Shown here: positions 1 through 566 of the stretch, piece by piece
Layout of the letters: each line of letters opens with the position of its first letter
How positions within the stretch are numbered: position 1 is the first letter of the stretch
Source of the DNA: a virus
Taxonomy: Duplodnaviria; Heunggongvirae; Uroviricota; Caudoviricetes
Strand: one strand, 5' to 3'
Length of the DNA: 48,151 nucleotides
IMG/VR virus record: IMGVR_UViG_2617270976_000012
Span: 1 to 48,151 of that record
Made by a program: the position numbers and the translations under genes
The notes under the pieces: model-generated
The model's database searches: none
Seen by the model: the letters and a program-made list of their open reading frames with translations, nothing else
Told to the model about the DNA's origin: nothing

Positions 1-276
1 TTACCGACTGCGGCCTGAGTTTTTTAAGTGACGTAAAATCGTGTTGAGGCCAACGCCCATAATGCGGGCTGTTGCCCGGCATCCAACGCCATTCATGGCC
101 ATATCAATGATTTTCTGGTGCGTACCGGGTTGAGAAGCGGTGTAAGTGAACTGCAGTTGCCATGTTTTACGGCAGTGAGAGCAGAGATAGCGCTGATGTC
201 CGGCGGTGCTTTTGCCGTTACGCACCACCCCGTCAGTAGCTGAACAGGAGGGACAGCTGATAGAAACAGAAGCCAC
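1..276 (-). CDS. insA: IS1 InsA protein
   Basis: 91-aa translation [48 protein letters not shown]... matches IS1 InsA as recalled; zinc-finger CxxC..CxxC plus HTH. Confidence 0.9.
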
Positions 277-331
277 TGGAGCACCTCAAAAACACCATCA
301 TACACTAAATCAGTAAGTTGGCAGCATCACC
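1..331 (-). mobile_element. IS1 insertion sequence, partial (one terminus inside window, rest beyond window start)
   Basis: Reverse complement of 309-331 is GGTGATGCTGCCAACTTACTGAT, the IS1 terminal inverted repeat; insA ORF lies immediately inside it. Confidence 0.9.
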
Positions 332-494
332 CCCATGGCATACCGTCATGAGCGACATGCTTATATTCCCTTCCTTCCATAAACGATTTTTCCCGGGCCT
401 TTTTTAACGTACCTTTTTTTATTCCTTTCAGCGCAATTAACTGCTCTTCGGATACCCATTTGCCGGGAGAGACAATCATGATTACTTCGCTCAT
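327..494 (-). pseudogene. Xis-like excisionase gene truncated at its 3' end by the IS1 insertion
   Basis: Minus-strand ORF MSEVIMIVSPGKWVSEEQLIALKGIKKGTLKKAREKSFMEGREYKHVAHDGMPWG read by eye; the GREY motif and W/basic pattern resemble lambda Xis; the stop codon TGA lies inside the IS1 inverted repeat. Confidence 0.35.
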
Positions 495-566
495 CGATTT
501 CTTTATCTCTTACATCAGACGAGCGCCGGTTGCAGAATACCAGTCACAACCGGCGACAGTTGAACA

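Follow-up and report, generated by a model that had tools for sequence, protein, structure and literature searches.

An IS1-interrupted rspB-type excisionase gene joined to a potB/potC-type lambdoid prophage in a draft contig of Escherichia coli 2-316-03_S4_C2

The excisionase of the Rac prophage, XisR (YdaQ), has been shown experimentally to bind attR and to stimulate Rac excision (PMC4632033). It belongs to Pfam family PF06806, as does the excisionase gene described here, which in intact loci likewise lies directly upstream of a tyrosine integrase gene at the prophage end; Rac XisR pairs with IntR of the ttcA site, whereas the present type of xis pairs with the integrase of the rspB site and is, in this case, cut after residue 54 of 83. 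The Xis protein of phage lambda has the same role, that of a recombination directionality factor, and contains the same tetrapeptide GREY, but represents a different family with no detectable homology. A parallel in gene order is the cryptic prophage Qin of E. coli K-12 (MG1655 1649000-1657500), in which the genes dicB-ydfD-ydfE' (a pseudogene of the exonuclease gene, exo) are followed by IS2E, the pseudogene intQ' and rspB, with no xis. Both loci have the same type of site and the same dicB-ydfD-exo-(xis)-int module, wrecked by an insertion sequence; in Qin this element is IS2, and xis and parts of exo and int have been deleted, whereas the present locus has IS1, an intact exo and the first 54 codons of xis.

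Two further sets of prophages, both from E. coli O157, are relevant to the locus as a whole. Comparison of Sp6/Sp14 with strain FRIK804 revealed a 1.15-Mb inversion with its crossover in a 174-bp repeat, verified by PCR (PMC7430833), so that inverted lambdoid prophages can exchange arms through a short repeat, as is proposed here for an interval of at most 136 nt; the O157 inversion is published, whereas the present one is inferred from one contig. The defective prophages of O157 Sakai (Asadulghani et al. 2009, PMC2669165) carry lesions in int and xis, some of them caused by insertion sequences, and otherwise look complete, like the prophage considered here. Of these, Sp4 and Sp14 lack xis and excise by means of integrase alone, whereas in the present case attL and attR would be non-cognate, a defect that integrase alone does not solve. 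All components and processes at the locus are already known, namely IS1, XisR-family excisionases, decay mediated by insertion sequences, and chimeric prophages.

The DNA analysed, referred to below as the window, is a stretch of 48,151 nucleotides corresponding to bases 65-48215 of draft contig JNQT01000008.1 (136,958 bp; GCA_000704325.1) of E. coli 2-316-03_S4_C2. The assembly is a short-read draft of 2014 and is broken within the IS1 repeat: the contig starts inside IS1, 64 nt to the left of window position 1, and these extra 64 nt are all IS1, representing the first and only 64 nt past insA on the contig, where insB' would be expected to follow in the -1 frame. A literature search on the assembly accession returned no match. 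The features of the window are listed in Table 1.

Table 1. Coordinates of features in the window (position 1 is the first nucleotide of the window).
Feature	Position	Strand	Remarks
IS1A-like insertion sequence, left (IRL-proximal) 331 nt	1..331	-	99.7% identity to an annotated IS1A copy; extends leftward beyond the window
insA, 91 aa, intact	1..276	-	ORF and both InsA domains; transcribed codirectionally with xis
IS1 terminal inverted repeat (IRL)	309..331	-	Exact 23/23 match
Truncated excisionase ORF, 55 aa	327..494	-	54 native codons, then Gly and TGA from the IS1 repeat; annotated in the source as hypothetical protein AD00_1311 (KDY22169.1)
9 bp beside IRL, CCCATGGCA	332..340		Candidate target-site duplication, assuming that IS1 arrived by simple transposition
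xis-exo spacer	495..566		potC-site similarity begins at 523; window in the rspB state at every fixed difference (528-551)
823-aa 3'-5' exonuclease (YdfE_N/YdfE_C/Rv2179c-like)	567..3038	-	Mosaic gene; exact protein in this assembly only
Putative crossover interval	826..961		Left, rspB-type reference; right, closest potC-site relatives
YdfD/DUF1482	3134-3322
DicB	3319-3507
ParE toxin	4838-5125
PaaA2 antitoxin	5125-5316
YdaS/YdaT	5855-6536
Hok	12231-12386
AraC-family regulator (HTH_AraC/HTH_18)	15646-16359	+	Downstream of antiterminator Q
Three tRNA genes: CAU, Arg-UCG, Arg-UCU	16388-16637	+	ARAGORN
TerB-domain protein	16736-17239		After the tRNA genes
SASA/DUF1737/DUF6645 esterase	17866-19839		After the TerB-domain protein
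OmpC-like general porin, complete gene	38547-39683	+	Porin_1 E=2.8e-142; between tail genes M and L

The canonical IS1 left inverted repeat, GGTGATGCTGCCAACTTACTGAT, occurs in the window as a single copy with 0 mismatches, against a chance expectation of 0, and a profile search of the adjoining insA frame detected the domains Zn_ribbon_InsA (1.3e-21) and HTH_Tnp_IS1 (4.7e-31). Alignment to the intact locus of E. coli E2863 placed the junction between IS1 and xis exactly at 331|332. Residues 1-54 of the truncated protein are identical (54/54) to those of the 83-aa excisionase WP_000005552.1, residue 55 is changed from D to G, and the TGA stop codon occupies positions 329-327 within the IS1 repeat. 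The left end of IS1 interrupts an 83-codon excisionase gene after codon 54, and about the last third of the gene is lost. A preliminary description of this DNA, made from its sequence, had the IS1 repeat ending at 331, the minus-strand frame 494-327 terminating at a TGA inside that repeat, and the C-terminus of the excisionase replaced by the insertion; each of these points was borne out, the replacement consisting of a single IS1-derived Gly.

None of 5426 complete E. coli genomes covers the exact junction, and searches of species-representative genomes and metagenome contigs gave no match to it. When the stub and exonuclease proteins were looked up by exact sequence, the source contig was the sole match, and no clonal sibling assembly emerged. 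The IS1 junction appears to be private to strain 2-316-03_S4_C2.

IS1 transposition generates 9-bp target duplications, and the right end of IS1 is GGTAATGACTCCAACTTATTGAT. Under a simple insertion this right end would adjoin GCATGGACTGTTATCCCATGGCA, comprising the 3' end of xis and the 9-bp duplication. The preliminary description implied such an event: transposition of IS1 into the prophage's cognate xis, with int, attL and the 9-bp duplication lying beyond IS1 and the loss of Xis as the sole defect. The clean junction with its exact IRL end is in keeping with this proposal, and independent IS1 insertions in this int-xis-exo module are found in other strains, namely within int in HSP60, between xis and exo in LR-06 and within exo in 23CRST051. 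Numerous further variants of this Xis, fused or truncated, have been recorded, so that decay of this xis is common.

The stub matched PF06806, described as 'putative excisionase (DUF1233)', with E=3.9e-20 and 71.7 bits (cutoff 22 bits). It covers positions 1-49 of the 70-position profile, compared with 1-69 for the intact 83-aa homologue, which matched with 2.4e-31; the corresponding value for Rac XisR was 6.2e-21. Identity between the window excisionase and XisR is only about 23%, and an hhalign comparison of the window xis family with XisR gave a probability of 84%. The family profile matches the solved 'putative excisionase' structure PDB 2KVV over residues 7-72, and, when an AlphaFold model of the intact homologue (mean pLDDT 73.7) was compared by fold, 2KVV matched best. 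In this model strand 13-15 is followed by helices 16-23 and 27-36, strands 44-46 and 59-62, and helix 63-76; the cut after residue 54 would remove the second wing strand (59-62) together with the C-terminal helix and retain the N-terminal helix-turn-helix part. The lost segment contains the most conserved block of the family, DNSPCFYN..EID.WI, and about a dozen invariant residues. Judging by this conservation and by a model of moderate confidence, the 55-aa stub is almost certainly inactive.

Kinship with lambda Xis, suggested by the earlier description of the gene as lambda-Xis-like, was rejected: comparison with the lambda protein (from NC_001416) gave a BLASTP E value of 9.3 and an hhalign probability of 0.5%, and the stub has no match to PF07825, the family of lambda Xis. 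Since the two proteins belong to different Pfam families and have no detectable homology, the GREY tetrapeptide common to them is a coincidence. Aligning the 55-aa frame to Xis families, a check suggested at the outset, recovered XisR/DUF1233 and not lambda Xis; the assignment as an excisionase is retained, and the reference to lambda is not.

It is conceivable, if quite unlikely, that the 54-residue helix-turn-helix stub still binds att DNA and interferes with a resident prophage of the rspB type.

Hundreds of unrelated E. coli draft contigs break off in this xis, at codons 52-61, in wild-type sequence; for example, a 54-aa 'partial' protein is found in 90 contigs and a fragment extending to codon 56 in 84 contigs. 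Two such contigs, L038 and L039, end in ...CCATGGGA and ...CCATGGG, respectively, both within 1 nt of the IS1 junction position. A shared IS1 junction as the explanation of the 54-aa 'partial' fragments was ruled out in the case of L038, whose terminal base is that of the wild type, and a duplication of the xis 3' end and int as the cause of the contig breaks was unsupported, the median being one copy per genome. In complete genomes close to those contigs xis-int-rspB is intact. The recurrent end point and the IS1 junction are no more than about 27 nt apart; that this reflects an unrecognised structural polymorphism in xis, such as a hot spot of insertion or recombination or a secondary attachment site, and not the behaviour of assemblers, or the interference by the stub mentioned above, is quite unlikely and is given a slim chance at best.

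The genomic context of the excisionase differs from that of the remainder of the prophage. In all 26 of the contigs read that carry a 96%-identical xis allele, and in four complete genomes whose allele is identical or nearly identical to that of the window, int-rspB-rspA adjoins the gene. Intact copies of xis are followed by a 426/431-aa integrase (Arm-DNA-bind_2) and then by rspB-rspA-ynfA, rspB being likewise the location of the cryptic prophage Qin in K-12. The O-like replication protein of the window, on the other hand, was accompanied by a 372-aa integrase (Arm-DNA-bind_1) and an 89-aa excisionase beside potC and potD in 10/10 contexts shown, among 26 contigs read; the 89-aa Xis of potC-site prophages matches PF07825 marginally (E=7.1e-5, 23.2 bits, cutoff 23 bits). 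Two potC-site loci, L032 and L026, are collinear with positions 523-14237 of the window at 99.4% and 99.05% identity, respectively.

The right boundary of the prophage is of the same kind. Beyond the window, the source contig continues from tail fibre genes to a ykgJ-like gene and then to potB, potA, pepT, roxA and phoQP. The contig rejoins K-12 potB at precisely the base where a potC-site prophage that retains its own integrase does so, and the att core, marked by a 12-bp overlap, lies within the 3' end of potB; in window terms this phage/potB junction falls at about 48,808, some 660 nt past the window end. By its sequence contexts, the stub is an rspB-type xis and not the potB/potC prophage's own, for which it had been taken. 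The proposal that this type of xis sometimes occurs at potC was rejected on the basis of 26 + 26 contigs and several complete genomes. The presence of an rspB-type stub and of a potC-type body with a potB junction on one molecule points to a chimeric prophage.

These contexts bear directly on the simple insertion of IS1 into a cognate xis. The xis type is tied to rspB in every context seen, the right junction is the potB core of another integrase, and attL and attR would be non-cognate even with an int beyond IS1, all of which makes that scenario extremely unlikely. In tblastn searches with rspB-type, potC-type and lambda integrases, no integrase was detected in the window (best E=0.085), and blastn revealed no DNA remnant of either int-xis module there. 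The preliminary description was right that no integrase lies to the left of the exonuclease in the window, but was not right to take this as a sign of loss: because the contig ends inside IS1, the absence says nothing on that matter and is an uninformative consequence of the limits of the assembly.

The transition between the two types of DNA was sought in exo, which is common to rspB-site and potC-site prophages, with local identities of 98-100% and typically 2 copies (the median) in an E. coli genome. In a comparison of nine rspB-site with eight potC-site loci, the sole differences fixed between the two groups fall at 528-551, and exo alleles outside these positions are shuffled between the sites. 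From 332 to 903, the window has 0 mismatches to the rspB-type reference L001, and the closest potC-type loci, L032 and L026, differ from it at 528-571, 672, 678 and 825; from 962 rightward, the window follows L032/L026 and L001 diverges. The ancestry appears to switch within the 3' part of exo, between 826 and 961 (136 nt), an interval that depends on the nearest relatives chosen, as no other fixed site-diagnostic SNPs were found across the gene among the loci compared. The rspB-type DNA accordingly defined extends from 332 to about 826-961, or approximately 500-630 nt.

A separate 60-nt patch in exo, at 1065-1125, has 10 differences from all the rspB-type and potC-type references used. It represents a third, rare allele, an identity of at least 99% being reached in just 10 complete genomes, 8 of which are listed at 100%. 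The patch suggests either repeated gene conversion in exo or a patchwork produced in assembly.

The likely history is that of a chimeric prophage that arose by homologous recombination in exo between two resident lambdoid prophages and that has IS1 in its xis. The parents would be an rspB-site and a potB/potC-site lambdoid prophage resident in one chromosome. In K-12 coordinates, a potC-site prophage (about 1.18 Mb) reads from int to tail and an rspB-site prophage (about 1.65 Mb) from tail to int; given these opposite reading directions, the two prophages would flank the terminus as inverted repeats. Recombination in exo would then invert the segment between them, across the replication terminus, and yield a product with rspB-type xis, a hybrid exo and a potC-type body, followed by potB. 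To the left of IS1, such a chromosome could have the 3' end of xis followed by int and rspB; DNA from the potC side and a deletion are the alternatives. We infer the inversion and the reciprocal product from one contig, on which the left flank is not included. The IS1 hit is a lesion additional to, and independent of, the mismatch of attachment sites, and either event could have come first.

A precedent for such a prophage is provided by the finished genome of E. coli E2863, where a prophage begins with rspB-int-xis and has uspF/ompN at its opposite end. In this hybrid (NZ_AP018802.1 1932500-1982495), the uspF/ompN/nifJ end corresponds to the Rac-side neighbourhood in K-12; the prophage also has an IS1203 insertion and three DUF1076 effector-like genes beside its tail fibre genes.

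The main rival explanation is misassembly, with separate, normal prophages at rspB and potB/C having been joined through their near-identical 3' exo sequences. The rspB prophage would then carry the xis cut by IS1, and the potC prophage would have an int and xis of its own. The join indeed lies inside a mosaic gene that occupies 2 places in the median genome, the exchange interval is just 136 nt, the contig comes from a 2014 draft and is also broken at IS1, and the exact exonuclease protein is absent from other assemblies. At such repeats, however, assemblers usually break contigs rather than mis-join them, the contig is unbroken over 137 kb, and genuine hybrids are known, both in the finished E2863 genome and in the published O157 inversion (PMC7430833). 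An artificial join is, on balance, considered unlikely.

A different role for IS1 deserves somewhat more weight, although it too is doubtful. The element could be the edge of an adjacent deletion or the product of IS1-IS1 recombination, and the DNA to its left would then be unrelated to xis; examples would be a patch bounded by two crossovers, with IS1 on the left and exo on the right, or the loss of the xis 3' end, int and attL. Such a rearrangement would fit the short extent of rspB-type DNA between IS1 and the exo crossover, as well as the finding that no remnant of the xis 3' end or of int occurs anywhere in the window, and it has a counterpart in K-12 Qin, which lost the same module beside IS2, leaving the ydfE' and intQ' pseudogenes and no xis. 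The same data, however, fit a simple insertion of IS1 before or after an exo-exo crossover, that is, a chimeric prophage of the kind favoured above.

For the chimeric prophage, precise excision would be impaired for reasons other than IS1. As assembled, the contig has a potB-type right junction and no cognate attL, int or xis, and with a non-cognate pair of attachment sites and neither int nor xis, precise excision should fail whatever the state of xis. On the assembled contig the prophage is thus likely to be defective in excision, in agreement with the preliminary description, which had called it probably excision-defective; its separation from a cognate integration module is not caused by IS1 alone. 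The view that the cargo is locked in likewise needs softening, since xis-less lambdoid prophages are known to excise through integrase alone or with the help of other prophages (PMC2669165), and any such fixation is likely to be due mainly to the att mismatch and not to the truncation of xis.

The term 'cryptic' also goes beyond the evidence for this prophage. Full-length family matches were obtained for the repressor, the O-like and DnaC-like proteins, RusA, Q, lysozyme, terminase, the protease-capsid fusion, portal, tape measure and J, and the replication, lysis and morphogenesis genes look intact by these matches. The cI-like repressor (5344-5745, minus strand) is a protein of 133 aa with a helix-turn-helix domain and no detectable S24 peptidase domain, so that induction may bypass the classical route of RecA-dependent autocleavage.

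Regarding the cargo, the toxins claimed earlier are present in the form of toxin-antitoxin and cell-division genes (ParE/PaaA2, Hok, DicB, YdfD and YdaS/T); among the window ORFs scanned, no Shiga-type toxin was identified. The regulator mentioned with them is probably the AraC-family protein, at whose position related potC-site prophages have a DNA methyltransferase. The tRNA with the CAU anticodon was assigned to Met by ARAGORN and to Ile in the annotation of relatives. The OmpC-like porin gene is annotated by PGAP as ompC in a 99%-identical prophage.

For the interpretation of prophage ends, the locus indicates that the absence of an integrase gene where a draft contig ends should not be read as its loss, and that a remnant of an excisionase gene should be matched to the attachment site of the prophage before it is called that prophage's xis. 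In E. coli 2-316-03_S4_C2, the mismatch between xis and site implies a large rearrangement, or a misassembly. The locus represents another case of the well-described decay and reshuffling of lambdoid prophages, in which insertion sequences and recombination between prophages fix cargo in the chromosome, in this instance ParE/PaaA2, Hok, DicB, an AraC-type regulator, an OmpC-like porin and Lom.
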